64,000 nucleotides of DNA. Source: Centroscyllium fabricii (Eukaryota). The stretch lies in assembly GCA_051313645.2 (NCBI GenBank), contig JBNRSN020000001.1, positions 527,620,001 through 527,684,000 on the forward strand. Reading direction: 5' to 3'. The position numbers and the translations under genes were made by a program. This document shows, in pieces, positions 3,370 through 57,510 of this stretch (positions are counted from its first letter, which is position 1; each line of letters begins with the position of its first letter). The notes beneath the pieces are model-generated. The model saw only the letters and a list, made by a program, of their open reading frames with translations, did not search any database and had not been told where the DNA came from.

Positions 3370-4412
3370 TGTTGTGTATATGCCTTTAAACTATATGCTG
3401 GGCACTACTTTATGTGGTGCCGTAATACTGCAGTACTTAGGCCAACCACTAGAGTATATAAGTTTGTGCGTGGAGCGATATGCTCAGAAGAGGAGTAGTC
3501 GTCGGTTGGTTGTAAGTCTCAGTCAGTTCCATACTCTGTAGTTGATGAATAAACACCTATTTGTTTTACACCCTGGAGTCGAGTCCGTTGTTATATGAGA
3601 CGCATAGCATGGACTTAACAATGGCGACGAGGTCGGTCGAATCCACAGCGGTCTAGAAGAAAAACAAAGGCTTTTCTCAAAGCCAAGAAGGAAAAGGAAA
3701 GAAAAATTATTTGAACATTTTTTTTCATCGGCGACCGTCGACTGCAACGATACACCCTGCACTCCAAAAGAGGGAGTGGCAGTGATTCTATTTGAAACAG
3801 AGGGAACAGAGACAGTCAGCACTCCAACATCGGGAGTGGCGTTGGCACTAACGGCACAGCCAGCACTCCAACATCGGAGAGCAGCAGCTACGTTAACGGC
3901 AGGAGATAGGCCGCAACATCGGCAGACGTCGAGGTACACACTCGACCTGCATCGGTATAAGACGCCGACGGCGCAGACACCGCAAAATAAAAGGCAGGGA
4001 GGCAATCGAAGCCACAGTCAACGGAGGCAGCCACCACTGGTTAAGACAAGGGGGGGAAGCTAGCGAGCACCCCAGCCAGCGGGCGTGGCAGCAGTCAACA
4101 TCGGGGCCCTAAGAAACAGATCGCTCTACCCAGGACCACGCCAGACCTCAGACAACGAGGCCGGAGAGGGCAAGAAAGATAAGAGAAACGGGCGATCGCT
4201 GGAAAAGAGGGCGAAGAATCGTTAACAGCAGAAAAAAACACGTGGATAGAGGGTGCGAAGAATCGCTAAGGGTGCAAAAACACACAATAAGGGTGCGAAG
4301 AGACGCAATCTTGAACGCCATTATGGCAGGAAGAAACGCGAAAAAGGGCGCAAAAAGATGGAAAAGGGCGCGAAGAGACGCCATTTTGAACGCCATCTAG
4401 GGAAGCCCAACC

Positions 4413-5560
4413 ATGGCAAAAGCAAACACCTTTGGGGCCTTCCAGATAGAAAGGGAAGACTGGGAAGCATACCTAGAAAGGTTCGCTATTTACTGCAAAG
4501 TACAGGCAGTAATGGACGAAAACAAAGCTAACACCCTGCTAAATGCAATGGGGCCTGAAACTTATGGATTGTTGAGAACCCTGGTGTCCCCAGAGAAGCC
4601 AGCTAACAAAACGCTACAACAAATTATAGACATCTTAAAAGAGAATGTGAACCCCATACCACCATTCATAGCAGAACGCTTCAAGTTCTTTAAACGTGAA
4701 CAACAAAAAGGAGAGTCACAATCCGAATATCTGACAGAACTCAGAAGATTGTCTAAAAATTGTGTTTTTGGAGACAAACTGCCCAATTACTTAAGGGACA
4801 GATTTGTGTGTGAAATTAAAGATGAAGCCACCCAAAAGAGACTGTTAGCTAAAAAGACGCTCACATTAGAGCAGGCAACCAAAATTGCAGCAGCACACGA
4901 GGCAGCTGCTTTGGGGGCAGCAGATATCAGAAACAAGGGGATATGCTGCGATGCTCATGAAGTTACAACCCACACTAATAGATGCTATCAGTGCGGCAAG
5001 ACCACACACGACCAGACCAAGTGCTGGTCAGAAACAAAAATTGTCGACAGTGTGGCAAGATAGGGCATATAGCAGCAGTATGCAAATCTGGGAAATGAAC
5101 TAAAATAGTTCAGAAGCAGACCAGGTCTAGAAAGGACAGGGAGGTGCACAACCTGTCCGAGGATGGCTCGGATGATGCGTCAGAATCTTTCACACCAGAG
5201 GACATGGGGCTGGGAAGTCTCAGGATTCACGGTATACACATCACCACAGACTGTCGGCCCATATGGATAACACTAAAAGTCTCTGGGGTAAACATGGAGA
5301 TGGAGCTGGACATGGGTTCAGCCCTCTCAGTAATTAGTGAGAGAGATTATAAAAAGTTTTTTTGACATATTCCCTTAGAAGAGACACCAGTGGTCTTCAG
5401 GACGTACACTGGACAAGAATTCCAGGCAGTGGGGAGGTTGCCCGTGATGGTACAATGCAAATCCAGGAAGGTGACAGGACTGCACCTGTATGTTGCAAAG
5501 AGCAGGTGATCACCACTCCTGGGGCTGGAATGGATAAGAAAAATTAACATCGGTTGGAAC
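4413..5560 (+). pseudogene. gag: Element A gag and aspartic protease, frameshifted
   Basis: EDWEAYLERF, IAERFKFFKREQ, LRDRFV, CYQCGK zinc knuckle; protease MELDMGSALSVISE. Confidence 0.85.
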
Positions 5561-5567
5561 TTGACCC

Positions 5568-7048
5568 ATGGCTTACACACAGATGCTGCCAAAAGTTGAT
5601 ACAATCACTTCGGCCAGACTGGATAGAAACCAGATGAATATTGTCCATCTAACTAAGGGACTACAGGAAGCACAAGACCAAATTAAATTGTGGCAGACTA
5701 CACAAAGTAAGTGGCAGTCTCAAAACAATGAGATGAAACACAACAACCAATCAGCACTTCAGGCTATGGAATGCGAACTTCAAAGAGAAAGTGATCGACA
5801 GAGAAGGTTGGTGGAAGAGAAGCTATGACAACACCGGCTTCAGCTCAACCAGCAGATGCAAGGACTGCAGCTCCAGCTTAACATTGGCCCAGAAATTGCA
5901 GTGGAGCCTTCGTGCGGGTGCAGTACCTGCTTAACGCACTTGAACTGCCCATATTCAGTTTTGCTTTTTTGCACTGAGAAATTCCCGTTAGCCCAGCCTG
6001 TCAGAGCTCTGTGCGAGTTTCATGGGCTTCTGAAGGGTGTAATTAGTGCGAGATGGCTTTTGAGACCACCTGATTGGCAGGGAGCCAATCAGTGGAACCA
6101 ATTCTCCATTCAAAACTTCCACAGAGAAATCTGTGCGAGTTTTGAATGGAGAGATTCCCAAAAGACATCTAAACACAAAAATAAAATTTTAAAAACACCA
6201 CATTTTTTAAACATTACTCCAACTAACACAAATAACCTATTTTAAAGAAAAAATAAAAATTTGTAGAAAAATCTTTCTACTTCCAACAGGTCTAAAAAAA
6301 TACTTACCTGTCTTTAAAGTTATCAACAATTAAAAACCTGAAAAAACAACAATTAAAATCAATAAAATACACAATTACCAGATAAAAACGGGTGTTTACG
6401 ACTCCTATTTTCCAGCGTTGAATTTTCTGCTCTTGGTCCGTAGAAAAACTTTTTTAAAATATCGGAATGACTGGGTGATCCCGTAGTTCGCTACTTCCTG
6501 CGCTGGACCTCGCAGGAAGCAGTGACCCCCCCCCCGCTGGGCGGCACAAGAAAACCCGAAGCTGCGCTACCGGCTGCTTCCTGCGGGTTTAAGCTCTGGT
6601 GCGCTCGCAGAGCTTAAACCCGATATGCGCAGACTGCAATTTCTGGGCCAATGTGTTACCGCAGGAGAATGATTCACTGGAGATCAATAACAAACGGCAA
6701 GCTGATCTACAAACCTCCAAAGCTACAGTGGCTGCATTGAAGGAAAGAAATGGATCACTGGAGGAGATGCACCAGGAAACAAAAACCCATAACGTGGACC
6801 TGGACAAAGAAATGGACAAATTTCATGCTCAGGTACAGGAGCTGCGTGAAAAGCACCTGCTAACAGTGCAGATTTTTCCGAACCCGGAGGAACTGTCGGT
6901 AATGGAACAGGAGGAAGAGCAATTGGAGGAAGATAAGGTTGAGGCTCAAATGCACGGCTACCAGATTGCAGATGCAGGCCATCCGGTCAGGGAGCTGACT
7001 GTGAAGAGAAAGAAAGGAAAACCTCATAGAAGAACTAAAAATCGTTAA
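5568..7048 (+). pseudogene. Coiled-coil ORF of element A, split by a MITE
   Basis: Q/E/K/L-rich helical ORF pieces rejoin in frame when MITE 5886-6649 and one TSD copy are removed; one internal stop near 5826. Confidence 0.55.
5886..6649. mobile_element. Harbinger-type MITE
   Basis: TIR GGCCCAGAAATTGCAGT...ACTGCAATTTCTGGGCC; ATT/AAT 3-bp flanks. Confidence 0.8.
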
Positions 7049-7485
7049 AATGGTGAAATGTTAGAATGTTCAAATGTATAGAGTTGATGTACAATGTTGC
7101 TAAGAAAGGTACTGTGTGACGAAGGTTGGAAAGAAACTGAACTTGTAAACAATGTGATAATGTACATTAACCATTGTTGTAATTGACGTATCGTCAAGGT
7201 CTTCAATTAAAAGAGTCGACGCGTAGTTACCGAAACTAAAGGCTTTTAATTACTAAAGAACGGAGCTACTCTCCTTACGAACTACTATACAGGAATGGAT
7301 GGAGCCTCGGTCAGACCACACCTATATCGGGGCCTCACCTGGGGGAGGAGTCGGGGGTGTGGCTGACCTGGTTCCCAGCAGTGTCATAGTAAACAGGGCT
7401 GTGCCTAACATCTGCACAGCCCATCATTAGCAATGGTGATACAGTGGTAATATAGCTGTAAGACGGTTACCACATTCACCCCTTC

Positions 7486-8799
7486 TTAAAAACTTTGAGT
7501 CCGGGGGGGGGGGGGTGAATGGATCGAACAGTTCATAATTAGTCTGTCCGGCGGTCGTGTCTGCCTGGCGGACCGCCGGAGCTCCGGTGTTGGTGGTGAT
7601 GCCTCCATGGTCGAATAGCCCGCATCTGTCGGCGCTGTGACTTCAGGTTGCGGTGGGCTCGGCTGGTCCCCGGCATCCGGGTCGCAGACGGGGAAACTCA
7701 GGGGCCATGTTGTGTCTGGTGTTTGAACGACCTGCTGCCCCGCAGGGGGCGCTGTGGTGGTGTTTCCGGCAGGGGCCAGGTCCCTGATGGACACGGTGTC
7801 CTCACGCCCGTCTGGGAACTGCACAAAGGCGTAGTGCGGGTTCGCGTGTAGGAGCTGTACCTTGTCCACCAGGGGGTCCGTCTTGTGGCTCCGGACATGC
7901 CTTTTAAGCAAAACCGGCCCCGGAGTCGTCAGCCATGGAGGGAATGCTGTCCCCGAAGTCGACCTCCTGTTAAACGAGAAAATAAGATCGTGCGGGGTGG
8001 CGTTAGTAGCAGTACATAACAGTGATCTGATAAAGTGCAGCGCATCTGGGAGGACTGCCTGCCAATGGGACACTGGAAGGCCTCTGGACTTCAGAGCCAG
8101 GGTGACCGCCTTCCAGATAATCCCATTCTCCCTTTCTACCTGGCCATTCCCCCGGGGGTTATAACTGGTTGTTCTGCTCGTGGCAACCCCTCTCTGGAGC
8201 AGAAACTGGCGCAGTTCATCGCTCATGAACGATGACCCCCGGTCGCTATGGATGTAGCTGGGGAGACCGAAAATGGCGAACAGCGTGGTGAAGTGTTTGA
8301 TCACCGTTGCGCTCGTCATGTCTGGACATGGGAAGGCGAAGGGGAAGCGGGAGAACTCATCTACTACCGTGAGGAAGTATGAGTTGCGGTCGGTGGAAGG
8401 GAGGGGGCCTTTGAAGTCCACGCTGAGACGTTCAAAGGGGCGGGTGGCCTTGATGAGGTGCGTCGTGTCTGGCCGGAAAAAGTGGGGTTTGCACTCGGCG
8501 CAGACAGGGCACTCTCGGGTTATAGCCTTGATCTCCGTGATGGAGTAGGGGAGGCTACGGGATTTGACGAAATGGGCGAGTCTGGTGACACCCGGGTGGC
8601 AAAGGCGGTCGTGGAGGTCCTTCAGCCGGTCTAGCTGGGCACTGGCGCACGTTCCCCTGGACAGTGCGTCCGGGGGTTCGTTGAGTTTGCCTGGTCGGTA
8701 AAGAATGTCGTACTCGTAAGTCGAGAGTTCGATCCGCCACCGCAGGATCTTATCATTCTTGATTTTACCCCGTAGTTTATTGTTAAACATAAACGCCAC
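7486..8799 (-). pseudogene. pol: Element B pol 3' part: end of RNase H plus integrase
   Basis: HHCC (LHDRLCHPG...CPVC), SVDFKGP, VDEFSRF, HSDRGSSF, GNGQVER; continues pol 13981-15252 across insertion C. Confidence 0.92.
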
Positions 8800-9028
8800 T
8801 GAAGCGTGGTCGCTGGCTTAATTAAAGACGACTAGTAGATACCGTTAATACTAGGCTTTTAATTAATAAAGAATGAAGCAGTAGGTTTCGTACAGTAATG
8901 GACTGAGGCAAGTTCAGACCTCACCTTTATAGTGCTCCACCTGGAGGGAGGAGTCGGAGGTGTGGCTGACCTGGCCCCAGCAACATATCAACACACAGGT
9001 ATTACAACAATGGGAACCCATATAAGGA

Positions 9029-12009
9029 TTACCCCAAATAAGGGTTACCACATTCACCCCTTGTTAAAAACTTTGAGTCCGGGGGGGGTGAATGCATAGA
9101 ACAGTTCATAATAAGTCTCTCCGGCGGCCGCGTGAGTCTTGCGGACCGCCTGGGTTCCGGTGTAGGTGGTGATGGCCCTATGGCCGAATCGTCCGCCGCC
9201 GTCGGTGCCGCAGCTTCATGACGTGGTGGGTTCTGCTGGACCTCGTCTCGTGCATCAGTGGGGAAACCTGGAGGCCCTCTTGTGGTTAATGGTAGGTGGA
9301 CCTGCTGGCCAGCTGGAGGAGCAGGGGCCAGGTCCCTGAGGGACACGGTGTCCTCACGCCCGTCTGGGAACTGCACAAAGGCGTATTGTGGGTTGGCGTG
9401 TAGTAGCTGTACCATGTCCACCAGGGGGTCCGTCTTATGGCACCGGGCGTGCCTCCTAAGGAAGACTGGCCCAGGGGTCGTCAGCCATGTTGGGAGTGCC
9501 GTCCCGGAAGATGATCTCCTGCTGAAAGAGAAAACAAGATCGTGCGGGGTGGCATTAGTAGCTGTACACAACAGTGACCTAATAGAGTGCAGTGCGCCTG
9601 GGAGGACTGCCTGCCAGTGGGACACTGGAAGGCCTCTGGACTTGAGGGCCAGGGTGACCGCCTTCCAGATAATCCCATTCTCCCTTTCTACCTGGCCGTT
9701 CCCCCGGGGGTTGTAACTGGTCGTTCTGCTCATGGCGACCCCTCTCTGGAGCAGAAACTGGTGCAGTTCATCGCTCATGAACGATGACCCCCGGTCGCTA
9801 TGGATGTAGCTGGGGAAACCGAAGATGGCGAACAGCGTGGTGAAGTGTTTGATCACTGTTGCGCTCGTCATATCTGGACAGGGGAAGGCGAAGGGGAAGC
9901 GGGAGAACTCGTCCACTATCGTGAGGAAGTATGAGTTGCGGTCGGTGGAGGGGAGGGGGCCTTTGAAGTCTACGCTGAGTCGTTCAAAGGGGCGGGTGGC
10001 CTTAATGAGGTGCGCCGTGTCCGGCCGGAAAAAGTGGGGTTTGCACTCGGCGCAGACAGGGCACTCTCGGGTCATAGCCTTGATCTCCGTGATGGAGTAG
10101 GGGAGATTATGAGTTTTGACAAAATGGGCGAGTCTGGTGATACCCGGGTGGCAGAGGCGATCGTGGAGGTCCTTCAGCCGGTCTAGCTGGGCACTGGCGC
10201 ACGTTCCCCTGGACAGTGCGTCCGGGGGTTCATTGAGTATACCTGGTCGGTAAAGAATATCGTACTCGTAAGTCGAGAGTTCGATCCGCCACCGCATGAT
10301 CTTGTCATTCTTGATTTTACCCCGTAGTTTATTGTTAAACATAAACGCCACCGACCGTTGGTCGGTGAGCAGGGTAAAACGCTTACCGGCCAGGTAGTGA
10401 CGCCAGTAGCGCACGGCCTCCACAATGGCCTGGGCCTCCTTTTCCACTGCTGAGTGGCGAGTTTCGGGTCCCTGTAAGGTGCGGGAGAAAAACGCTACGG
10501 GCCTGCCTGCCTGATTCAGGGTGGCAGCGATGGCAAAGTCCGAAGCGTCACTCTCCACCTGGAAAGGGATGGATTCATCAACAGCGACCATGGCCGCCTT
10601 GATAATATCTTCCTTTATCTTATCGAATGCCTTTTGGGCTTCTATAGAAAGGGGGAAGAGTGCAGCCTTGAGGAGTGGTCTAGCCTTGTCTGCGAACTGT
10701 GGGACCCATAGTGCATAGTAGGCGAAAAGTCCTAGACATCTCTTCAAGGTTTTAGGGTTGTGAGGTAAGGGCAGTTCTAGCAGGGGTCGCATCCGAGGCT
10801 GGCGAGCCGGGTTGTATTAAAGACACACTTGTCTTTGTTATACGTAAGGTCCAGCTTAGCCGCCGTGGCGAGGAATTTGGCCAGATTGGCATCGTGGTCC
10901 TGCTGGTCGTGGCCGCAGATGGTCACGTTGTCCAGGTAGGGGAAGGTGGCCTGCAACTCGTTCTGGTCAACCATGCGGTCCATCTCACGCTGGAAAACTG
11001 ACACCCCGTTGGTCACGCCGAAGGGGACCCAGAGGAAGTGGTAGAGCCGGCTGTTCGCCTCGAAGGCGGTGTAGGGACGGTCAGTTCTCCGGATCGGGAG
11101 CTGGTGATACGCCGATTTAAGGTCGATCGTAGAGAACACCTTGTACTGGGCGATCTGATTGACCATTTCCGAGATGCGGGGGAGTGGGTAGGCGTCGAGC
11201 CCGGTGTAGCGGTTAATAGTCTGGCTGTAATCGATAACCATCCGATGTTTCTCGCCAGTCTTAACGACTACAACCTGGGCCCGCCAGGGGCTGGTGCTGG
11301 CTTCAATGATCCCCTCCTTTAGCATCCGCCCGACCTCCGACCTGATAAACGTGCGATCCCCCTCACTGTACCGCCGACTCTTAGTGGCGATAGGTTTGCA
11401 CTTTGGATCGAGGTTGGCGAACAGCGAGGGGGGCTCGATTTTCAGGGTGGAGAGGCCGCAGGCCGTGGTCCGCTTTGGGAGGAGACTGTCCCGGCTACTG
11501 AGGGTGAGTGGGGGAAGAGTCCCGCCGAACTCCATTGTCACACTCTTGAAGTGGCTCTGGAAGTCCAGACCTAGTAAGGCTGGGGCACACAACTGCTGGA
11601 GGGTATACAATTTAAAATTACGGTACACGCGTCCCTGGACGGTGAGCGTGACGGAGCAGTAGCCGGTGACGTCCGCAGTGTGGGACTGTGAAGCTAATGA
11701 GACCTGGTAGTTAGTGGGCAGGACCTGCAGTCCGAGGCGCCGCACTGTATTAGGATGTATAAAGCTCTCGGTGCTGCCCGTGTCAAAAAGGCAGTTGACC
11801 GTGTGATCGTTGATCTTGATTGGCCTTATGGAGTTAGACAGGGTGTGGGGCTTGTCCTGGCTAACTGTAAGGCCGGTCGCCGCTGAAGAGGGTGGCGTAC
11901 AAAATGGCTGCCTGGATGCGACCTGACAAAATGGCTGCCCTTCCAAAAATGGCCGCCCCTCACAAGATGGCCGCCCCCCTTGCTCGCACGTGGGGGGGGG
12001 ACCTGACAA
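9029..12009 (-). pseudogene. pol: Element C pol (PR-RT-RNaseH-IN), frameshifting deletion near 10790
   Basis: CLFDTGS, VPFGV, YLDN, SDASD, DDE integrase; two abutting ORFs with the YVVENGVLG segment missing. Confidence 0.92.
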
Positions 12010-12259
12010 GATGGTCGCCCCTTACAAAATGGTCGCCCCGTACAAAATGGCCGCCCCCTTTGTTCACACGTGGAGGGGACCTGACAAAATGGCCGCCCTC
12101 ACTGGGGGGGGGGCCTGGGGAAGGACAAAATGGCTCCCCTGGCTCACTCCATGCGGGATCTGTGGGGAGACAATGGATTGCAGTACTGGGGGAAGACAGT
12201 CGATTACAGCACATCGGGGAATCTGAAAAACAGAATGAGGTTAGTTGGTGTTCAGGGTT

Positions 12260-12730
12260 AGTTTCAGGAGTTTTACAGCCAGAGAATTCAGCTACAGGCT
12301 GCCGAGATCGCGATTTGTACTGGTCAGTTTCAGCCGTTTTAGATCCAGAGAGTTCAGTTACAGGCTGCCGAGATCGCGATTTAAACTGGTCAATTTCAGC
12401 AGGTTTGCAGCCAGAGAGTTCAGTTACAGGCTGCCGAGATCGCGATTTGTGCTGGTCAGTTTCAGTAGGTTTGCAGGTAGGGAGTTCAGTTACAGGCTGC
12501 CGAGATCGCGATTTGTGCTGGTCAGTTTCAGTAGGTTTGCAGGCAGGGAGTTCAGTTACAGGCTGCCGAGATCGCGATTTGTGCTGGTCAGTTTCAGTAG
12601 GTTTGCAGGCAGGGAGTTTAGTTACAGGCTGCCGAGATCGCGATTTGTGCTGATCAGTTTCAGTAGGTTTACAGGCAGGAAGTTCAGTTACAGGCTGCCG
12701 AGATCGCAATTTGTACTGGTCAATTTCAGC
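12260..12730. repeat. 66-bp tandem array (~7 copies) inside element C
   Basis: Unit AGTTCAGTTACAGGCTGCCGAGATCGCGATTTGTGCTGG... starts at 12285, 12351, 12417, 12483, 12549, 12615, 12681. Confidence 0.95.
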
Positions 12731-13701
12731 CGATTTATAGTTCGAGGGTTCAGAACTAGCAGCCTCCCGCTGTGGAAGCGCGGTGCCCGCAATCCGGGCG
12801 CAGCCGGCCGCGTAGGAGGGTCGCGCCTGGCTGGTCGCCGCTGCCTCGGGGGGGGCGCTTGGCGTTGTAATAAAAAACTGCTAACGCAGCCTACCTGGTT
12901 ATCTTGCGAGTTCTCACAGGCGCTATTGTAGCGTTTTGGTGTAGCCGCCGCTTGGGTTGCTCTGCAGACTTTGGCGAAGTGTCCCTTCTTAGAGCATTTG
13001 TCACAGGTAGCTGTTTTGGCTGGGCACTTTGCCCTGGGGTGCAAGCCTTTTCCGCAAAAATAGCAATGTTTATACTTCGTGGCCGCCGCGGTCATGGTGG
13101 GGCTCGCAATCGGTTGCGCTGGTTGATTCGTGGCCCAAATGTTGTAAGGTTGGTGGTTGGTGCTGCCGTACGCCTGAGATTTGTTGCGGGCCCCTTCCAC
13201 CGATCTAGCTAAAACGGTTGCCTCTTCAAAGGTTAACGCTTGCTGTTCCAGTAGCCTCTGCCGTGCATCTGCACATCTTAGTCCAGTGACATAGGCGTCC
13301 CGGAGGAGGAGATTTTCCTCCTGGAGCAAGGTCGTTTGACCCGTACAGCCACAGGCCTTTATCATGCCCCGGAGCGCTTGCTCAAAATCTTCGTTTGACT
13401 CACCGGGAAGTTGCGATCGGGTCGCTAGTAGGTGGCGGGCGTAGACCTTGTGCATCGGGCGTTCGTAGTACCTTTTGAGAGTTGCCACTATGTCCACGTA
13501 TGTTGTCTGGTCCTCTATGAGTGAGTAAACTCTGCTTGAGACCCTTGATAGCAGCACTTGCATTTTTTGCGCATCCGTTTCGGCCTTGCCCGTTACCATA
13601 TAAGCTTCTAGCACTTTGAGCCAGAGCTTGAAGGTGAGCGGTCCTACTGGATCCTGGGGACTAATGTCGAGTTCCCGAGGTCTTGCTGTGTTGCTCTCCA
13701 T
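12688..13701 (-). CDS. gag: Element C Gag
   Basis: YARHLLATRSQLPGE, RDAYVTGL, CYFCGK...CDKCSKKGHFAKVC knuckles. Confidence 0.9.
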   Translation of the reverse strand: MESNTARPRELDISPQDPVGPLTFKLWLKVLEAYMVTGKAETDAQKMQVLLSRVSSRVYSLIEDQTTYVDIVATLKRYYERPMHKVYARHLLATRSQLPGESNEDFEQALRGMIKACGCTGQTTLLQEENLLLRDAYVTGLRCADARQRLLEQQALTFEEATVLARSVEGARNKSQAYGSTNHQPYNIWATNQPAQPIASPTMTAAATKYKHCYFCGKGLHPRAKCPAKTATCDKCSKKGHFAKVCRATQAAATPKRYNSACENSQDNQVGCVSSFLLQRQAPPPRQRRPARRDPPTRPAAPGLRAPRFHSGRLLVLNPRTINRLKLTSTNCDLGSL

Positions 13702-13980
13702 TATAAAATTATTAATTAAAATTGAAGCGTGGTCGCTGGCTTAATTAAAGACGACTAGTAGATACCGTTAATACTAGGCTTTTAATTAATAAAGAATGAA
13801 GCAGTAGGTTTCGTACAGTAATGGACTGAGGCAAGTTCAGACCTCACCTTTATAGTGCTCCACCTGGAGGGAGGAGTCGGAGGTGTGGCTGACCTGGCCC
13901 CAGCAACATATCAACACACAGGTATTACAACAATGGGAACCCATATAAGGATTACCCCAAATAAGGGTTACCACAGCCAC

Positions 13981-15252
13981 CGACCGTTGGTCGGTGAGCA
14001 GGGTAAAACGCTTACCGGCCAGGTAATGTCGCCAGTAGCGCACGGCCTCCACGATGGCCTGGGCCTCCTTTTCCACTGCTGAGTGGCGAATTTCGGGTCC
14101 CTGTAAGGTGCGGGAGAAAAATGCTACGGGCCTGCCTGCCTGATTCAGGGTGGCAGCAAGGGCAAAGTCCGAAGCGTCGCTCTCCACCTGGAAAGGGATG
14201 GATTCATCAACAGCGAGCATGGTCGCCTTGATAATATCTTCCTTTATCCTTGCGAATGCCGTTTGGGCTTCCACAGAAAGGGGGAAGACGGCAGCCTTGA
14301 GGAGTGGTCTAGCCTTATCTGCGAACTGTGGGACCCATTGTGCATAATAGGAGAAAAATCCTAGACATCTCCTCAAGGCTTTGGGGTTGTGAGGTAGGGG
14401 CAGTTCTTGCAAGGGTCGCATACGCTGTGGGTCGGGGCCGAGGACCCCGTTCTCCACCACGTATCCGAGGATGGCGAGCCGGGCTGTATTAAAGACACAT
14501 TTGTCTTTGTTATACGTGAGGTCTAGCTTAGCCGCCGTGGTGAGAAATTTGGCCAGATTGGCATTGTGGTCCTGCTGGTCGTGGCCGCAGATGGTCACGT
14601 TGTCCAGGTAATGGAAGGTGGCCTGCAAGTCATTTTGGTCGACCATACGGTCCATCTCCCGTTGGAACACTGACACTCCGTTGGTCACGCCAAAGGGGAC
14701 CCGGAGGAAGTGGTAGAGCCGACCGTTCACCTCGAAGGCGGTGTAGGGGCGGTCGGCTTTCCGAATCGGGAGCTGGTGATACGCCAATTTAAGGTCGATC
14801 GTAGAGAACACCTTGTACTGCGCGATCTGGTTGACCATTTCTGAGATGCGGGGAAGGGGGTAGGCGTCGAGCCCGGTGCAGCGGTTGATAGTCTGGCTGT
14901 AATCGATAACCAGCCGCTGTTTTTCACCAGACTTCACCACTACAACTTGGGCACGCCAGGGGCTGGTGCTGGCTTCGATAATCCCCTCCTTCAGCATCCG
15001 CCCAACCTCCGACCTGATGAACGTGCGATCCCCCTCACTGTACCGCCGACGCTTAGTGGCAATGGGTTTGCACTTTGGATCGAGGTTGGCGAACAGCGAG
15101 GGGGGGTCGATTTTCAGGGTGGAGAGGCCGCAGGCCGGGGTCTGCTTTGGGGGGAGATACTGAGGGTGAGGGGGGGTAAGGTCCCGCCGAACTCCATTGT
15201 CACACTCCTGAAGTGGCACTTGAAATCCAAACCTAGTAAGGCTGGGGCACAC
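13981..15252 (-). pseudogene. pol: Element B RT and RNase H
   Basis: SPWRAQVVVV, IDYSQTINR, YLDN, SDASD; interrupted by C at TDQRSVA. Confidence 0.92.
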
Positions 15253-16898
15253 AACTGTTGGAGGGTATACAATTTAAAATTACGGTACACGTGCCCCTGG
15301 ACGGTGAGCGTGACGGAGCAGTAGCCGGTGACGTCCGCGGTGTGGGACTGCGAAGCTAGTGAGATTTGATAGTTGGTGGGCAGGACCTGCAGTCCGCAGC
15401 GCCGCACTGTATCGGGGTGCATAAAACTCTCAGTGCTGCCTGTGTCGAAAAGGCAGTCGACAGTATGATTATTAACGCCAATCAGTATTATTGAGTTAGA
15501 CAGGTGGTGGGGCCTGCCTTGACTAACTCTGGTTCTGGCTGCAGCAGCCCCTGCTGATAGGGACTGTGCACAAGATGGCGCCGCCCCTGGCTCGCACATG
15601 GAGGGGCCCTGAATGCAAGATGGCGTCGCCCCTGGCCCGCAGCTGGTGGGACCCCGTATACAAGATGACGCCGTCCCTGGCTCGCACATGGAGGGGCCCT
15701 GGAAACAAGATGGCGTCGCCCCTGGCCCGCAGCTGATGGGGCCCCGTATACAAGATGGCGCCGTCCCTGGCTCGCACATGGAGGGGCCCTGGAGACAAGA
15801 TGGCGTTTCTGAGGGGCCCTGTGAACGCGCTGGTGGCGCCCGTGATTCGCACGCAGCGAACCGCGGTGAACGCGCTGGCGGCACCCGTGATTCGCACGCA
15901 GCGAACCGCGGTGATCGGGTTGGCGGTGCCCGTGGTTCGCACGCAGCCGGCCGCGTTGGAGGGTCGCGCTTGGCCGGTCGCCGCTGCATCGGGGTGGGGG
16001 ATGGGGGCGCTTGTCGTTTACCCCCGTACCGTCGCTGAATCGCGCTGCTAATGCAGCTTACCTGGTCTCTGTCGGTGCTCTCACAGGCTGCACTGTTGTA
16101 CCTTTTATTAAACGCTGCTGGAGACGCTGCTGGAGCTGATTTGCAGACCTTAGCGTAGTGTCCCTTCTTTGCGCATTTCTCGCAGGTCGCTGTCCTGGCT
16201 GGGCATTTCGCTCTAGGATGCAGTCCCTGGCCACAGAAGTAACAGCGCTTCCTTTTAACATCTTCAGTGGCCGTCGCGGCCATCGTGGGGGTCTTGGCCC
16301 GTGGCGCCCAGGCCTGGGCCTGTTGTGGGGCGGCCCATATGTTGTAGGCTTGCGGGTTGGTGCCGCTGTACGCCTGTAACTTTTTGCGGGCCCCCTCAAC
16401 CGATTTGGCTAACGTGGTTGCCTCATCGAGGGTTAGATTGTCTCTTTCTAGTAGCCGCTGGCGGGCTTCCACACACCTTAGTCCTGTTACATAAGCGTCC
16501 CAAACGAGGAGTTCTTCCTCCTCTGCTATAGTTGTGCCTTTGCAGCCATAGGCCCGTACCAGGGCTAGGAGTGCTTGCTCAAACTCTTCATTCGACTCAC
16601 CCGGTAGTTGAGGTCTAGTCGCTAGCACATGTCGGGCGTAGACCGAATGGACCGGGCGCACGTAGCATTTCTTTAAAATCTTAACGGTCGCTTCGTAGGT
16701 TGTGGCGTTCCTGACGAGGGTGAATACTCTGCTGGAGATCCTAGATCGCAGGACATGTAGCATGTCCTTGTCTGCTGTAGCCTCGGCGGCTTCCATGTAG
16801 GCCTCCAGTAGGCCGAACCAGTGTTCGAAGGTAGTGGGAGCAGCAGGGTCCTGGGGGCTGATGTCCAGCTTCTCAGGCTTAACGTTGTAGCTATCCAT
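15114..16898 (-). CDS. gag: Element B Gag-protease single ORF with repeat linker
   Basis: Gag motifs, two Cys/His knuckles, Pro/Cys repeat linker, CLFDTGS; frameshift before RT. Confidence 0.9.
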   Translation of the reverse strand: MDSYNVKPEKLDISPQDPAAPTTFEHWFGLLEAYMEAAEATADKDMLHVLRSRISSRVFTLVRNATTYEATVKILKKCYVRPVHSVYARHVLATRPQLPGESNEEFEQALLALVRAYGCKGTTIAEEEELLVWDAYVTGLRCVEARQRLLERDNLTLDEATTLAKSVEGARKKLQAYSGTNPQAYNIWAAPQQAQAWAPRAKTPTMAATATEDVKRKRCYFCGQGLHPRAKCPARTATCEKCAKKGHYAKVCKSAPAASPAAFNKRYNSAACESTDRDQVSCISSAIQRRYGGKRQAPPSPTPMQRRPAKRDPPTRPAACEPRAPPTRSPRFAACESRVPPARSPRFAACESRAPPARSQGPSETPSCLQGPSMCEPGTAPSCIRGPISCGPGATPSCFQGPSMCEPGTASSCIRGPTSCGPGATPSCIQGPSMCEPGAAPSCAQSLSAGAAAARTRVSQGRPHHLSNSIILIGVNNHTVDCLFDTGSTESFMHPDTVRRCGLQVLPTNYQISLASQSHTADVTGYCSVTLTVQGHVYRNFKLYTLQQLCAPALLGLDFKCHFRSVTMEFGGTLPPLTLSISPQSRPRPAASPP

Positions 16899-17364
16899 TT
16901 TAAATAATTTAGTAATTAAAATTGACGTATCGTCAAGGTCTTCAATTAAAAGAGTCGACGGGTAGTTACCGAAACTAAAGGCTTTTAATTACTAAAGAAT
17001 GGAGCTACTCTCCTTACGAACTACTATACAGGAATGGATGGAACCTCGGTCAGACCACACCTATATCGGGGCCTCACCTGGGGGAGGAGTCGGAGGTGTG
17101 GCTGACCTGGTTCCCAGCAGTGTCATAGTCAACAGGGCTGTGCCTAACATCTGCACAGCCCATCATTAGCAATGGTGATACAGTGGTAATATAGCTGTAA
17201 GACGGTTACCACAGTAATTAAGTTACTTTCCTATGTAAATGTGTACGTAAAATGTTATAGAGAGTAGAACGGTGTCGAAAATTGCTGTAAGAGACTAACT
17301 AGCACTGAACAATGTATGTAACAATAGTTAACTGTTGTACCCCCTTGTGTACTTATCATCGTAC

Positions 17365-19375
17365 TGTAACGGTACGCCGGCTGGCGAATCCGCCTCGGGA
17401 GTACTGCGCTGCATAGCCCCGCCCACCGGGTGACACGATGACGTCACCACATCTCTCGGCGTGATGAGTTCAGCGGCGAGCGGGCAGTTTAAAAGAGCCC
17501 GCTCCTCGTGGCTCAGTCTTTCTCATGTAGTACCATTGATTAAACAAGTGTTAACTGTTTCTCCGGCTCCTGTGTGGTTCTTGGGTCCTGTAAGCGCTAC
17601 AGTGGTGACCCCGACTTAGAACGTCTTCCAAGGAGAAAACAGCAGCTCAAAAGGACTTAAAGCCAAGCAGCCGCAGGACACTTTTAAGCAACAATGGCTT
17701 CCAGAAACCAAGCTTCTCGTCAACAAGGACTTGGCCAGAACCCCGGGCACAGACTAACTTTACTGGAGTTCTGGGAGCAACGCCCGGCAGCGTGGTTTAT
17801 GTGCATAGAGACCAGCTGCCGCACTCATGGCATCCAGGGGGACGATCGCTACGACCTGGTCTTCTAGGCCCTATCGCAATCGACGATCGATCGGATGTGG
17901 TCGAAGCTACAGAGCGTGCCCGCAGCAGGCAGGTATGATTTCATCAAGGCCGCGCTACTAAAAAATTTCACCCCCACCCAGTTCGAGCGCGACTGCCAAC
18001 TCCTCAACCTCCCCGAACTCGGGGACGCAGACCCATCCGACCTTTGGGGCCAGATGCAAGCGCTCACCGCCGATCCCGCCTCCCTGTTCAGCACCATTTT
18101 CCTCCTTAAGCTGCCCCCCTCCATCAGACCGGCCCTGGCGGCCTTCAGCAACCGGAGCGGGGACGAGCTAGCCGAGGAAGCCGACAGGCTTATGGCGGCC
18201 GAGCGCACCTGCTCCGCCACGTGCGACCTCACTGCCGCGGCAGTCGAGCCCACCCACTCGCCCCCCAGGTCCAACCCAACGCCTGAACCCAGGCCCCGCG
18301 CCCTCCCAAGCAACCGCGTGCCGCAAGCACCGGTTGGTGCTACTACCACGCGCGATTCGGCACCAAAGCGCACCGCTGCGTCCTGCCCTGCACGTTCAAG
18401 CCACAGCCCGGCCCAGCCCCCACCATGTCCGTAGGCCACACCGGAGCCCTGCTCTACGTCACGGACAGCGGCACAGGTCGCCGGTTCCTCTGCGACACAG
18501 GCGCACAGCACAGCATCGTGCCAGCCTCCCCCGCAGAAGCCAAAAAAGGCACCCGGGGCCCGCCCCTCGCGGCTGCCAACGGCTCGGACATTAAAAAGTA
18601 CGGGACCCGCAAGTTAGCAATCCAGCTTGCCGGCCACACGTACGAATGGGAGTTCGTCATGGCCCAGGTCACATCACCCCTCCTCGGGGCAGATTTCCTG
18701 TGCACCCACGGCCTCCTGGTCGACATGACCCGGCACCGCCTGGTCGACATTAAAAATATGTCGCCCATCCCATGCTCCACGGGGCCGGCACTCCTGGCCC
18801 ACGCGGCGGCACGATGCCGCACCCGGAACTCAGACGCGTACAGCTCGCTCCTCTCTGAGTTCCCAGCACTGACCAACCCCACCTTCACCGCCCGCACGGC
18901 TGGGCAACCGAACAGAAACGGTATCGATCGACCGGCTGAAACCGGCACACGTAATAGCGGGCGACGCGACAGTCCCCGCCCAACCACCTCAACGCGGATG
19001 CAATCCCACACCAACACCCGCCCACACTCCACCGCAGCACCAGGAGCAACACACGACACGTGCCGGCCGCATCTTACGGCCACCACGACGCCTCGTATAG
19101 ACTCTTTTCCTCTCGGACAGATTCTGGGGGGAGCTGTGTAGCGGTACGCCGGCTGGCGAATCCGCCTCGGGAGTACTGCGGGGCATAGCCCCGCCCACCG
19201 GGTGACGCGATGATGTCACCACATCTCTCGGCGTGATGAGGTCAGCGGCGAGCGGGCAGTTTAAAAGAGCCCGCTCCTCGTGGCTCAGTCTCTTTCTCAT
19301 GTAGTACCATTGATTAAACAAGTGTTAACTGTTTCTCCGGCTCCTGTGTGGTTCTTGGATCCTGTAAGCGCTACA
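17365..19375 (+). mobile_element. Gypsy element G, non-autonomous gag-protease element with tRNA-Trp PBS (CsRN1-like)
   Basis: LTRs 17365-17601 and 19137-19375; PBS TGGTGACCCCGAC 17603-17615; PPT before 19137; TSD GTAC. Confidence 0.92.
17694..19141 (+). pseudogene. Element G gag and protease
   Basis: EFWEQRPAAWF, LGDADPSDL, IFLLKLPPSIR; protease FLCDTGAQHS...LLGADFL; no RT or integrase. Confidence 0.8.
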
Positions 19376-19654
19376 GTACCTGTACGATTGAATTAAGAAG
19401 GGAGGAATGTTGTGTATGTGCCTTTAAACTATATGCTGGGCACTACTTTATGTGGTGCCGTAATACTGCAGTACTTAGGCCAACCACTAGAGTATATAAG
19501 TTCGTACATGGAGCGATATGCTCAGAAGAGGAGTAGTCGTCGGTTGGTTGTAAGTCTCAGTCAGTTCCATACTCTGTAGTTGATGAATAAACACCTATTT
19601 GTTTTACACCCTGGAGTCGAGTCCGTTGTTAGATGAGACGCACAGCACACATAG

Positions 19655-49727: not shown

Positions 49728-52700
49728 TGTGGTAACCGTAATTACCACTGTAAATAGTTAAGCACACTATAGACCAGCATGTATAGTGGCTGGGTGCATT
49801 GTACATAGTTTTGTATTACGACACTGTCGCGAGGTCAGGTCAGCCACACCTCTAACTCCTCCCCTCAGGTGAGTGCCTTATAGGTGGGCTCTGACCTGCC
49901 CCCATTCATTCTGTACTCGATATTCAACTGGAGAGTAGCTCCATTGTAAAGTGAATAAAAGCCTATAGTTAAGGTAACTACTCGTCTTTGATTCATTGAC
50001 GATACGTCAATTTTATTCACTCTAAAATTAAAATGGAGAGCGGCGCTGTGAAACCCGAAAAGCTGGATGTCAGTCCACAGGACCCAGCCGCCATGAATGC
50101 GTTTGAACATTGGTTCAGCCTCGTCGAGGCCTACATAGAGGCCGCAACCGGCATCTCGTCCAGCGCGGTCTGCTGCGTGCGAATCACGGGCGCTGCCAAC
50201 TCAGCCACCGCGGCCCGCTGCGTGCGAACCACGGGCACCGCCACCGCATCCACAGCGACCCGCCACGTGCGAATCATGGGCGCCGCCATCTTGTCTTCAG
50301 CGGCCAGCCATGTGCGACTCCCCGGCGTCGCCATCTTGTCCTCAGCGGCCAGCCATGTGTGACCCCCGGCGCCGCCATCTTGTCTTCAGCGGCCAGCCCT
50401 GTGAGACTCCCCGGCGCCGCCATCTTGTCCACCGCAGTCGGCCACGTGCGAATCACGGGCGCCGCCATCTTGTGCACAGCCCCAGCTAGCGGAGGGCCCC
50501 CACACACGCAAATACACTTCGGCCTCAGCCACGGTCGACCAGGTTAGGCCGCACACCCTATCAATATACATGATGGGGATTAAAGTTAACGGCCATATCA
50601 CCAACAGCCTGTTCGACACCGGAAGCACAGAGAGCTTCATTCACCCCGACACAGCGCGGCGCTACGGACTGCAGACCCTGCCCATGCACTACCAAATCTT
50701 CCTTGCTTCAAAGTCCCACACGGCGGACGTCACCAGCTACTGCTCCATCACGCTCACAGTCAGGGACTGCGTGTACCGTAATTTTAAACTGTACATACTC
50801 CAGCAGTTGTGCGCCCCAGTCTTACTGCGACTAGATTTCCAGTGCCACCTGAAGAGCGTGACAATGGAGTTCGGCGGGACCCTGGCCCCCCTCACCGTTA
50901 ATTGCCGGGACAATCCCTTCCTAAAGCGGAGCCCAACTTGCGGCCTTTCCACCCTGAAAGTCGACCCCCCCTCGCTGTTCGCCAACCTCGACCCCAACTG
51001 CAAACCCATTGCTACCAAGAGTCGGCGTTACAGTGCAGGGGATCAGACATTTATCAGGACGGAGGTCGGGCGTATGCTGCAGGAGGGGATAATTGAAGCC
51101 AGCACCAGCCCCTGGCGGGCCCAGGTCGTAGTGCTTAAGACTGGCGAGAAACTGCGGATGGTGATCGACTACAGCCAGACCATTAACCGCTACACCGGGC
51201 TCGACGCCTACCCCCTTCCCCGCATCTCGGAAATGGTTAACCAGATCGCCCAGTACAAGGTGTTCTCCACAATTGACCTTAAGTCGCCGTATCACCAACT
51301 CCCGATCCGGAAAGCCGCCCGCCCGTACACTGCCTTCGAGGCGAACGGTCGGCTCTACCACTTCCTCCGGGTCCCCTTCGGCGTGACCAACGGAGTGTCG
51401 GTATTCCAGAGGGAGATGGACCGTATGGTTGACCAGAACGGGTTGCAAGCCACTTTCCCCTACCTGGACAACGTGACCATCTGTGGCCATGACCAGCAGG
51501 ACCACGATGCCAACCTGGCCAAATTTCTCCACACGCAGAAACGGCTCGATCTCACGTACAATAAAGACAAGTGCGTCTTTAGTACAGATCAGCTCGCCAT
51601 CCTCGGATATGTAGTGGAAAACGGGGTCCTTGGCTCCGACCCACAGCGTATGCGCCCCTTACAGGAACTGCCCTTACCTCACAACCCCAAGGCCCTGAAG
51701 AGATGTCTGGGATTTTTCTCCTATTATGCGCAATGGGTTCCCCAGTTCGCGGATAAGGCCAGACCGCTCCTCAAGGCTTCCGTCTTCCCCCTCTCGGTAG
51801 AAGCCCACACGGCATTCGCCCGGATCAAGGAAGATATTATCAAGGCGAACATGCACGCCGTTGATGACTCCATCCCTTTCCAGGTGGAGAGTGACGCTTC
51901 GGACTTTGCCCTTGCCGCCACCCTGAATCAGGCAGGTAGGCCCGTAGCGTTTTTCTCCCGCACCCTACAGGGACCCGAAACTCGCCACTCTGCAGTGGAA
52001 AAGGAGGCCCAGGCCATCGTGGAGGCCGTGCGCTACTGGCGTCATTACCTGGCCGGTAAGCGTTTTACCCTGCTCACCGACCAACGGTCGGTCGCGTTTA
52101 TGTTTAACAATAAACAAAAGGGTAAAATCAAGAATGATAAGATCCTGCGGTGGCGGATCGAGCTCTCGACTTACGAGTATGACATTCTTTACCGACCAGG
52201 CAAACTCAATGAACCCCCGGACGCACTGTCCAGGGGAACGTGCACCAGTGCCCAGCTAGACCGGCTGAAAGAACTCCACGATCGCCTCTGCCACCCGGGT
52301 ATCACCAGACTTGCCCCTTTCGTTAAATCACGTAGCCTCCCCTACTCCATCACGGAGATCAAGGCTATGACCCGAGAGTGCCCTGTTTGCGCCGAGTGCA
52401 AACCCCAATTTTACAGGCCAGACACGGCACACCTCATTAAGGCCACCCGCCCCTTTGAACGTCTAAGCGTGGACTTCAAAGGCCCCCTCCCCTCCACCGA
52501 CCGCAACTCGTACTTCCTCACGGTCGTAGACGTGTTCTCCCGCTTCCCCTTTGCCTTCCCCTGCCCAGATATGACTAGCGCAACGGTGATCAAACACTTC
52601 ACCACACTGTTCGCCATTTTCGGTCTCCCCAGCTACATCCATAGCGACCGGGGGTCATCGTTCATTAGCGACGAACTGCGTCAGTTTCTGCTTCAGAAAG

Positions 52701-53791
52701 GGGTTGCCTCAAGCAGAACGACCAGTTACAGCCCCCGGGGGAACGGCCAGGTAGAAAGGGAGAACGGGATCATCTGGAAGGCGGTCAGCCTGGCTCTGAA
52801 GTCCAGAGGCCTTCCAGTGTCCCTTTGGCAGGCAGTCCTCCCAGACGCGCTGCACTCCATCCGCTCTCTGCTGTGTACGGCTACCAACGCCACACCTCAC
52901 GAATTGCTCTTTTCCTTCCCCAGGAAGTCGACTTCGGGGACAGCACTCCCACCATGGCTCACGATGCCGGGGCCGGTCTTACTTAGAAAACATGTCCGCG
53001 GCCATAAGACCGACCCCCTGGTGGAGAAGGTGCAGCTGCTGCACGCCAACCCGCAGTACGCATATGTGCAGTTCCCGGACGGGCGCGAGGACACAGTTTC
53101 CATCAGGGACCTAGCGCCCGCCGGGAGCACCACAGCAGAGCCCCTGGTCGAGTCTCAGCCCGACCAGCCACCACCTACCGACCACTGGCTTACACACCAA
53201 CCACAACCCACCGGATCTTGGCCTATGCACACACACACACCGGGGCCCCCGACACTACCAGCCGAGGACCAAGAACCAGATGCCACACCACAGACACAGC
53301 TGCCGGAGGACCCGGCCCCGCCACCACTACCGGCACCAGCGCCGCTACCAGAACCCCGGCGGTCCTCAAGACAGACACGACCGCCGGAGAGACTTATTAT
53401 GAACTGTTGAGCTGGACTTATACAATGCAAAAAAAAAATTCTTCCTTCCCTGCATTAACAGGTTCTGTCCATTCACCCCGCCGGACTCAATTTTCAAAGA
53501 AGGGGTGAATGTGGTAACCGTAATTACCACTGTAAATAGTTAAGCACACTATAGACCAGCATGTATAGTGGCTGGGTGCATTGTACATAGTTTTGTATAA
53601 TGACACTGTCGCGAGGTCAGGTCAGCCACACCTCTAACTCCTCCCCTCAGGTTAGTGCCTTATAGGTGGGGTCTGACCTGCCCCCATTCATTCTGTACTC
53701 GATGTTCGACTGGAGAGTAGCTCCATTGTAAAGTGAATAAAAGCCTATAGTTAAGGTAACTACTCGTCTTTGGTTCATTGACAATACGTCA
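49728..53791 (+). mobile_element. Gypsy element D (PBS-less lineage), gag deleted, pol open
   Basis: 282-bp LTRs 49728-50009 and 53510-53791; TSD CCTTG/CATTG; PPT AAAGAAGGGGTGAA. Confidence 0.95.
50570..53410 (+). CDS. pol: Element D Pol (PR-RT-RNaseH-IN), 946 aa
   Basis: LFDTGS, YLDN, SDASD, HHCC and DDE motifs, all in one frame. Confidence 0.93.
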   Translation: MMGIKVNGHITNSLFDTGSTESFIHPDTARRYGLQTLPMHYQIFLASKSHTADVTSYCSITLTVRDCVYRNFKLYILQQLCAPVLLRLDFQCHLKSVTMEFGGTLAPLTVNCRDNPFLKRSPTCGLSTLKVDPPSLFANLDPNCKPIATKSRRYSAGDQTFIRTEVGRMLQEGIIEASTSPWRAQVVVLKTGEKLRMVIDYSQTINRYTGLDAYPLPRISEMVNQIAQYKVFSTIDLKSPYHQLPIRKAARPYTAFEANGRLYHFLRVPFGVTNGVSVFQREMDRMVDQNGLQATFPYLDNVTICGHDQQDHDANLAKFLHTQKRLDLTYNKDKCVFSTDQLAILGYVVENGVLGSDPQRMRPLQELPLPHNPKALKRCLGFFSYYAQWVPQFADKARPLLKASVFPLSVEAHTAFARIKEDIIKANMHAVDDSIPFQVESDASDFALAATLNQAGRPVAFFSRTLQGPETRHSAVEKEAQAIVEAVRYWRHYLAGKRFTLLTDQRSVAFMFNNKQKGKIKNDKILRWRIELSTYEYDILYRPGKLNEPPDALSRGTCTSAQLDRLKELHDRLCHPGITRLAPFVKSRSLPYSITEIKAMTRECPVCAECKPQFYRPDTAHLIKATRPFERLSVDFKGPLPSTDRNSYFLTVVDVFSRFPFAFPCPDMTSATVIKHFTTLFAIFGLPSYIHSDRGSSFISDELRQFLLQKGVASSRTTSYSPRGNGQVERENGIIWKAVSLALKSRGLPVSLWQAVLPDALHSIRSLLCTATNATPHELLFSFPRKSTSGTALPPWLTMPGPVLLRKHVRGHKTDPLVEKVQLLHANPQYAYVQFPDGREDTVSIRDLAPAGSTTAEPLVESQPDQPPPTDHWLTHQPQPTGSWPMHTHTPGPPTLPAEDQEPDATPQTQLPEDPAPPPLPAPAPLPEPRRSSRQTRPPERLIMNC

Positions 53792-57414: not shown

Positions 57415-57510
57415 TTCAAAATTTTAAGCTAATAAAATTGACGTATCGTCAATAGTCTTAATAAAACTAAAGACGTGTAGTTACCTGAACTAAAGGCTTT
57501 ATTAGCTTAC

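Follow-up and report, generated by a model that had tools for sequence, protein, structure and literature searches.

A Ty3/Gypsy clade with a family-specific leader–LTR duplex and probable tRNA-independent self-priming

The leader–LTR duplex in the window and beyond

Four Ty3/Gypsy elements in the genome of Centroscyllium fabricii, together with a clade of related copies, carry just behind the 5' LTR a short leader that is complementary to a segment of their own LTR. This clade-wide fold-back is a real cis element, far beyond chance. It seems likely that the clade primes reverse transcription in cis and independently of tRNA, by means of a long capped primer that would be freed by a cut 3' of the LTR arm of the duplex; that a primer of some form derives from the arm we regard as highly probable.

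The analysed DNA (the window) is a stretch of 64,000 nt, positions 527,620,001–527,684,000 of the forward strand of contig JBNRSN020000001.1 (assembly GCA_051313645.2). Elements B, C, D and E have LTRs of 253–302 bp with TG..CA ends, a polypurine tract and a 5-bp target duplication, which is exact in B and C and has one mismatch in D. The domain order of the clade, taken from the window frames and the alignment members, is Gag-PR-RT-RNase H-IN, RNase H motifs are intact, and the top solved-structure match was the Ty3 Gag-Pol (E 3e-95).

Element B lies on the minus strand. Its 5' LTR (16923–17213, 291 bp, TG..CA) differs from the partner 3' LTR (7184–7474, target duplication ATTAC) at 5 of 291 positions. 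A TATA-like box at 17060–17065 is located 83 nt before the 3' end of the arm, and position 17035 is the initiator A and, judged from the motif and from aberrant copies described below, the probable 5' end of the RNA. The arm (16983–16996), which holds ATTAAA and would form the 3' end of the self-primer, is the exact complement of the 14-bp primer-binding site at 16908–16921; the putative cut falls between 16983 and 16982. The loop starts with a region (16960–16982, end approximate) where a small RCC..GGY hairpin directly 3' of the arm is a clade-wide trend, weak in B itself. A single A (16922) separates the primer site from the LTR end, which is set by the second LTR. The gag-protease frame runs from its ATG over 595 codons to the stop (15114–16898); RT-RNase H lies in 13837–15273, and the integrase is interrupted by element C, its remainder lying at 7486–8817; the polypurine tract (7475–7487) precedes the 3' LTR.

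Element C, inserted within the B integrase and also on the minus strand, has identical LTRs (5' 13723–13975; 3' 8800–9052; 0 mismatches in 253, target duplication GTGGC), with TATAAA near 13854 and initiator candidates at 13827 and 13822. Its arm (13780–13792, 13 bp) is complementary to the primer site at 13709–13721. At least 40 identical genome copies of C were found over 376 bp, all 40 scored matches being identical, so young families are mobile without a tRNA site. Element D, on the plus strand, has a 282-bp 5' LTR (49728–50009; TATA 49879, initiator candidates 49904 and 49908) that differs from the 3' LTR (53510–53791) by 8 mismatches in 282. Its arm (49950–49960) pairs with the primer site at 50011–50021 over 11 bp in the window copy and over 14 bp in the D family, and the 11 bp are a decayed copy of the 14-bp family duplex. 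Element E, on the minus strand, comprises a 5' LTR (63271–63572; TATA 63410, initiator A 63381), a 13-bp arm (63330–63342), the complementary primer site (63257–63269) and a PR-RT-RNase H-IN frame (58889–62389) with the RT motif YLDN and without a chromodomain. The 3' LTR region of E and a fifth, tandem unit occupy 57412–58869 on the same strand. Here the LTR parts 58638–58869 and 57439–57512 are split by a LINE (57513–58637; RVT_1 and ALKBH8_N found with Pfam), presumably of Rex1/Babar type, and a second primer site (57425–57437) and a gag ATG (57414) follow; the arm of this unit is one A shorter.

The initial annotation had described the four leader/LTR pairs as exact reverse complements beginning one nucleotide past the LTR, and both points held: pairing begins behind a single A after the terminal CA, the second LTR copy serving to define the LTR ends. 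The loops between the two strands measure 61, 58, 50 and 60 nt in B, C, D and E, and the distances from LTR end to gag ATG 25, 21, 23 and 24 nt. Polarity fits a primer, as pairing starts at LTR+2 and the 3' end of the arm comes to lie next to the LTR end. The claimed lack of a TGG-type tRNA site was confirmed on a broader basis, TGG being present in 0 of 35 leader types, and no tRNA gene was found within the window. The two neighbouring elements used as controls, A and G, do have TGG-type sites (3622–3632 and 17603–17615, both on the plus strand), which we take to be for tRNA-Ser and tRNA-Trp, and the complement within their own LTRs reaches only 4 and 7–8 nt.

Some further features of the window were recorded. 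For G (2 kb between LTRs, 17367–19377) the two scanned frames gave no Pfam domain; G, B and C are all nested in element A (3370–19647), whose gag is a weak PNMA match. A DDE_Tnp_4 transposase frame, presumably Harbinger-like, lies at 1030–2343, and a D-like LTR fragment without a leader at 54553–54730. Tandem-repeat arrays, with a 45-nt unit in B, D and E and a 66-nt unit in C, are situated in the coding sequence that separates the Gag zinc knuckle from the protease (11960–12880, 15544–16004, 50138–50480 and 61937–62353).

To follow the fold-back beyond the window, 253 gag 5' ends were gathered from the window, other loci of the same genome and metagenome or genome-bin contigs. At least 150 nt upstream was available for 246, of which 5 were the same locus twice, leaving 241 distinct copies. 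A perfect leader–LTR complement of at least 11 bp was present in 205 (176 of 205 copies from this genome, 29 of 36 from other hosts). Among the 36 misses, 22 pair at 12 of 13 positions, one carries a TGG site, and most of the others have an interrupted LTR or a leader exceeding the scanned 70 nt. Most loci of this genome are near-duplicates belonging to five families, and the number of leader types (35, with 17 from this genome and 18 from elsewhere) is therefore more telling than that of copies. The identical scan of shuffled LTRs gave at least 11 bp in 9 of 7000 trials, and dinucleotide shuffles with a fixed start in 2 of 7000.

When the LTR end was defined by the second LTR alone, in 36 elements, 13 of 13 positions paired in 25 and 12 of 13 in 2; 9 failed, 8 of them through alignment over-run, a contig end or tandem or duplicated ends. 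The ninth is a weak gag match with a TGG-type site and probably belongs to another lineage. The whole-fold z-scores of the four window leaders are modest (-0.4 to -2.7); the signal is a placed, family-specific duplex and not overall folding energy. We also noticed one locus (L161:190–262) in which the LTR end and primer site occur twice in tandem ahead of the gag ATG.

Compensatory change and anatomy of the arm

The four sequences differ and each matches its own LTR, which had initially been read as compensatory change. The larger set bears this out: positions 5–13 were Watson–Crick in 311 of 315 cases, against 171 ± 8 (maximum 202) in 10,000 permutations, a comparison in which positions up to 11 are paired by selection, the contrast with the permutations is the informative part and kinship is ignored by the permutation. 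The own LTR was strictly the best match of the leader in 31 of 35 types, with 4 ties, and the match averaged 14.1 nt with the own LTR and 5.4 nt with foreign LTRs. Neither limit of the permutation applies to the second-LTR check above or to the gag tree, on which at least 84 changes of pair state were counted at positions 1–13, and near-identical copies (for example L133 and L141, or B and L028) differ by double changes.

In 223 anchored copies we counted 2868 Watson–Crick pairs, 3 G-U pairs and 28 other mismatches. All 31 non-Watson–Crick pairs are confined to single loci, and no G-U is fixed in repeated combinations. Of 16 arm/leader combinations seen at least twice, 15 are perfect, and the sixteenth is D of the window counted twice. 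Such perfect repeated pairing would be the mark of templated copying: since no G-U is fixed, unlike what is expected of a structural helix, the primer site is probably rewritten from the primer in each cycle.

The arm usually measures 13–14 bp (range 11–19), with a sharp peak of duplex length at 13–14 bp; it ends in two to four A's in the 35 types, and GCC or ACC follows directly in 32 of them. AATAAA or ATTAAA is found inside the arm in 28 of 35 types, and the remaining 7 arms are perfectly paired without it; in L121, L125 and L127 a separate poly(A) signal lies downstream. Duplex formation was predicted with a probability >0.8 in 32 of 35 types, the loop spans 24–87 nt (24 nt in L156) and the leader 16–47 nt. 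The small RCC..GGY hairpin right behind the arm was better than in shuffled sequences in 24 of 35 types (p=0.0014) and is missing in several. Predicted folds showed this hairpin and, in B/D/E-type LTRs, another at the LTR end, whereas the region 3' of the primer site had no duplex in common. B/D/E-type LTRs also have a hairpin on the 5' side of the arm, which was considered as a general feature and rejected. A self-cleaving ribozyme was likewise rejected: Rfam gave 0 matches at E<=1 in 8 loci, and the loop of 24 nt in L156 is too short. Counted from the arm 3' end, position -10 is G and position -11 is A in 31 of 35 types each, a constraint on sequence that goes further than pairing and may reflect contact with an enzyme.

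In this genome a TATA-like box lies 75–92 nt before the arm 3' end in 14 of 17 types, that is 62–79 nt before the arm, and an initiator about 55 nt before the arm 3' end. In the 18 types from other hosts neither was clear, and the RNA start may therefore be nearer the arm there.

Aberrant copies, the RNA start and models of priming

The genome contains aberrant copies, which we call fossils, with an over-long copy of the primer region after the LTR end. The first (L287, an over-copy of 30 nt) was found by chance. Three search motifs composed of the LTR end, the leader and the complement of the LTR upstream of the arm gave 9, 537 and 23 matches, and the reversed controls 0 each; the motifs need at least 19–24 nt of complement and are thus blind to copies of a short primer.

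Thirty B/D/E-type loci were read out of the 537 matches of the second motif, and their over-copies comprised 13 short and 17 long ones. Six of the 13 short over-copies stop at 52–54 nt, at or no more than 2 nt from the initiator A, whose position, 28–30 nt after the TATA box, had been recorded ahead of this test (p=2.5e-6; with the shared junctions L321/L327 and L333/L322 merged, 4 of 11, p=4e-4). The stop is exact in L321, L327, L333 and L322 and lies 1–2 nt past the A in L335 and L345; the own LTR of L322 is interrupted, and it was measured against the E LTR. L321 and L327, from subfamilies related to B, end at the base of their own LTR that is equivalent to the B initiator, while L333, L322 and L335 end at the E initiator A (63381) or 1 nt past it. 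From there the copies jump into gag or pol at short microhomologies. The other seven short over-copies stop at 27–41 and 64 nt. In the C family, 3 of 5 short over-copies stop at 45–46 nt, between the initiator candidates at 43 and 48, and two of these three use the gag start as microhomology.

Four sequencing runs, all of assembled contigs, showed neither RNA starts nor ends nor poly(A) joints. A stop at the initiator A suggests a capped transcript as template, since only such an RNA should end there. The fossils support an RNA start about 40 nt before the arm, or 45–55 nt before its 3' end. The initial annotation had placed the arm well downstream of the start, and in the B/D/E-type families the fossils agree, ending at the initiator A 52–54 nt before the arm 3' end. 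A start exactly at the arm, named there as the sign of classical Tf1-type priming, was not found in this genome, as judged indirectly from TATA spacing and fossils.

Among the long over-copies, 12 of 17 reach the first base of the LTR. The full-LTR palindromes had 5-bp target duplications in 4 of 8 cases checked, and in one more with a mismatch; they would therefore have been made before integration, from plus-strand DNA ending in a primer copy, and we infer that they are snap-back products inserted by the integrase. Palindromic LTR-A-inverted-LTR insertions with 5-bp target duplications are seen at L329, L341, L326, L340 and L314. The genome likely holds several hundred such insertions, a source of perfect inverted repeats of about 200–240 bp and possibly of double-stranded RNA. 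Three of the 30 over-copies (L316, L317, L330) run antisense through the LTR start and the polypurine tract into the internal region.

The model that we favour can be outlined as follows. Transcription would start at the initiator A, 28–30 nt after TATA and roughly 45–55 nt before the arm 3' end, as the fossils support. The leader, 1 nt past the LTR, would pair over 13–14 bp with the arm, a duplex to which the covariation attests, closing a loop of 24–87 nt that tends, statistically, to open with the RCC..GGY hairpin. The paired state may hide the 5' copy of the poly(A) signal, whereas in the 3' LTR the signal should be free because no leader follows. By analogy with Tf1 (PMC7175516, as far as its available text goes), an endonuclease, most likely the RNase H of the element, would cut just 3' of the terminal A's of the arm and free a capped self-primer of about 45–55 nt. 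From its 3' end RT would copy the spacer A, U5 and the loop, and strand transfer could rely on the segment that separates the cut from the poly(A) site. Plus-strand synthesis would then copy the primer and rewrite the primer site from the arm each cycle, so that the match stays perfect, as the absence of fixed G-U suggests. Usually 13–14 nt would be kept, and over-copying to the cap would lead to the jump and snap-back insertions whose products are present in the genome. A primer of 45–55 nt would require some additional stop or trim, as 13–14 nt alone are kept.

The position of the arm over the poly(A) signal probably gives the duplex a second job, occlusion of the 5' signal. An extended form of this idea makes one 13–14-bp duplex both poly(A) switch and primer, the primer being a capped short LTR RNA; transcripts that end prematurely or come from solo LTRs might supply it in trans, and host processing enzymes might finish it instead of RNase H. 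We hold this for a doubtful, though conceivable, variant. If true, such coupling of priming and 3'-end processing would be a priming route for which no counterpart has been described, in a Gypsy lineage that evolved independently, occurs across animals and mostly has a YxDN reverse transcriptase. Supply in trans was also considered in a plainer form, in which the arm of a capped short transcript from a solo or 5' LTR, its signal exposed, base-pairs with the primer site of a full-length RNA, and the transcript is then cut or trimmed to the last A of the arm. The primer would be identical to that of the cis model, so this reading accommodates the covariation, as well as the fossils that stop at the start, equally well; the poly(A) signal in 28 of 35 arms would be accounted for, and solo and 3' LTR ends are common. 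The fossils map the start and not cis versus trans, as the plus strand could jump onto a second, intact RNA. We nevertheless find it unlikely: the cis duplex predicted in 32 of 35 types would outcompete a partner in trans, the hairpin right behind the arm should hamper exonuclease trimming, and 7 of 35 arms have no AATAAA or ATTAAA. Quite improbable is priming by the arm of the 3' LTR, paired with the primer site in a circularised RNA once the poly(A) tail and the nucleotides 3' of the signal have been lost. The three run-on fossils speak for it, but can also arise by DNA snap-back on longer plus strands; the end-points at the initiator A call for a template that begins at the cap site, and the 5' arm, near and in cis, competes.

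The geometry of Tf1 itself, with a further start site located at the arm or immediately ahead of it, so that the arm forms the first 13–17 nt of the packaged RNA, has some points in its favour: a pyrimidine-CA lies 11–20 nt before the arm 3' end 11 times among the 17 own-genome types, the duplex-length peak is sharp, other hosts show no clear TATA, and alternative starts are known to regulate Tf2 (PMC5341516, in its available part). It is rendered very improbable by the TATA position, 62–79 nt before the arm compared with 29–30 nt in sushi-like controls, and by fossils that extend 39–41 nt past the arm to the upstream initiator, although the latter objection is weakened by the blindness of the fossil motifs to short-primer copies. 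A duplex that merely hides the 5' poly(A) signal, as is thought of the HIV-1 poly(A) hairpin, with priming by something else, would suit the signal within 28 of 35 arms, and retroviruses with a signal in R must occlude or repress its 5' copy (PMC12789967, available text). Yet the 7 arms without a signal pair perfectly, in L121, L125 and L127 the signal is separate and downstream, a structural helix would tolerate G-U and need not begin exactly at LTR+2, no primer site would be left in a leader of 16–47 nt, and the fossils would be unexplained; we regard this reading as highly improbable. Priming at the leader by a host tRNA fragment or small RNA has a precedent in the half-tRNA priming of some Copia lineages (PMC6317226, available text) but is extremely improbable, with 17 leader types in one genome each fitting its own LTR, no TGG and no Rfam match in 8 loci.

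Relatives and known tRNA-independent elements

The initial annotation had also noted the lack of a chromodomain, and this extends to the clade: PF00385 is absent from the window pol frames and from all 16 alignment members and is listed for none of 120 homologues, whereas it is present in the control L303. Named Pol/Gag relatives occur in cnidarians, crustaceans, echinoderms, a tunicate, nematodes, a mollusc, hagfish, cartilaginous fishes and an ant; the fold-back was seen in this genome and in the contig hosts, and the named relatives are known from proteins alone. Longer homologues turned out to be other lineages. No relatives were found in viral contigs, and the ESM Atlas returned generic RT clusters only, without a clade name. 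Copies L201–L210, P0014 and P0051 are animal retrotransposons in genome bins labelled as bacterial, probably host contamination.

The RT motif is YLDN in C (10777–12021), D (50405–53410) and E. Where the motif could be read, Asn replaces the second Asp of YxDD in 86 of 107 homologues, although young families carry it. The corresponding mutant of Ty1 reportedly polymerises but does not transpose.

In the first RT tree the 32 clade rows formed a branch of their own with a long stem (SH-aLRT 100) and 24–34% identity to the outgroup rows. Both RT trees are quick trees with long branches, from which Tf1 and sushi themselves are absent; the first left the deep order open, and the second held 9 of the 32 clade rows, 8 of the 16 outgroup rows and 6 proteins, two long or short rows being among those omitted. 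The clade adjoined Mag-like elements in a quick RT tree (SH-aLRT 94), and a grouping with sushi-like chromoviruses was rejected by the AU test (p=0.011); an earlier test that included a further chromodomain row, which did not group with the others, had given p=0.0007 and was repeated without it. The outgroup labels were set by eye from motifs and PBS type against a reference alignment (PMC2871265 supplement 3, in its available part). As these labels go back to motifs and PBS type and not to named references, an independent origin is no more than likely.

Several candidate identities were discarded. Neither the Tag clade nor the 23 reference RTs (PMC2871265 supplement 3, available part) show the motifs of the new clade; membership in Mag or CsRN1 does not fit an RT on a separate branch and leaders without TGG; and Barthez differs in size, 7.3–8.8 kb (PMC11117352, available text). 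The Mag-like elements share the 5-bp target duplication, but the Mag-like element A has a TGG site. The short LTRs and single frame of about 1200 aa in the clade are reminiscent of Cigr-1 of Ciona. In molluscs, both Cigr-1 and unnamed MolGy clades have been described (PMC6238403, available text), and the available descriptions mention neither PBS nor priming.

To our knowledge, fission-yeast Tf1 is the one case in which self-priming has been shown, and sequence evidence has extended it to chromovirus kin and some plant lineages. The Tf1 primer consists of the first 11 bases, released by an RNase H cut between bases 11 and 12 (PMC7175516), and its primer site lies within a three-duplex "pretzel" (PMC10085805; available text of both). 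Like Tf1, Tf2, Tj1 and the Tf1/sushi group, the new clade has no tRNA site and a primer site past the 5' LTR that complements its own LTR RNA, and it would need a freeing cut. It differs in that its arm measures 13–14 bp, lies about 40 nt inside the RNA and 24–87 nt from the primer site and overlies the poly(A) signal, and in having no chromodomain and a separate RT lineage. The clade would thus work like Tf1 self-priming, yet it departs from Tf1/sushi in three traits: the terminal primer of about 11 nt, the chromodomain and the RT grouping. Applied to sushi-like controls of the same genome (L303–L305), the method used for the clade recovers the Tf1/sushi pattern: the primer is 11 nt long and lies 410–460 nt before the LTR end, TATA stands 29–30 nt before the arm, and AATAAA is far downstream. 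These elements (L303:416–988, L304:294–919 and L305) look intact, carry chromodomains and covarying 11-nt self-primers, and form an abundant young family.

Plant TAR Copia elements (Houba, Osr-1) and Tcn1 chromoviruses were predicted to self-prime from an LTR complement of the primer site of at least 10 bp (PMC6317226); unlike the new clade they belong to another superfamily or to the chromoviruses, and the available part of that description gives no start site, poly(A)-signal overlap or fossil evidence. Dictyostelium Skipper also has no tRNA site, but it has a polypyrimidine tract without an LTR complement (PMC5006619), and in fungal GalEa and bivalve biv-TRIM, again without a tRNA site, the hairpins are inside the internal region (PMC6934838; available parts of both). 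The literature seen thus names Tf1/sushi, Tcn1 and plant TAR Copia as self-priming and Skipper, GalEa and biv-TRIM as PBS-less (PMC6317226, PMC5006619, PMC6934838, each in part). In HIV-1, as here, a poly(A) signal in R is held in a 5' stem (PMC12789967, available text), but in the new clade the primer site, located beyond the LTR, serves as the partner strand, which restricts the stem to the 5' end.

In the literature searched, which included the available parts of PMC3601003, PMC4600332 and PMC12801592 and left Repbase and closed journals outside, no animal non-chromovirus clade of such form was found, and searches by term within PMC2577118 and PMC2774666 yielded no match. Hosts such as Nematostella and Hydra have long been annotated, so these elements must surely be listed in catalogues, where self-priming may have been remarked on.

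A separate Gypsy lineage, very abundant and recently active in a 7.2-Gb genome, thus seems tRNA-independent by another geometry, which bears on how often tRNA priming is lost or gained and on the way RT can cleave duplex RNA at a distance from a 5' end. Priming without tRNA is also relevant to how elements evade silencing by tRNA fragments. Software that requires a tRNA site will overlook or misjudge such elements, and aberrant insertions offer a method by which the primer and the transcription start can be read without RNA data.
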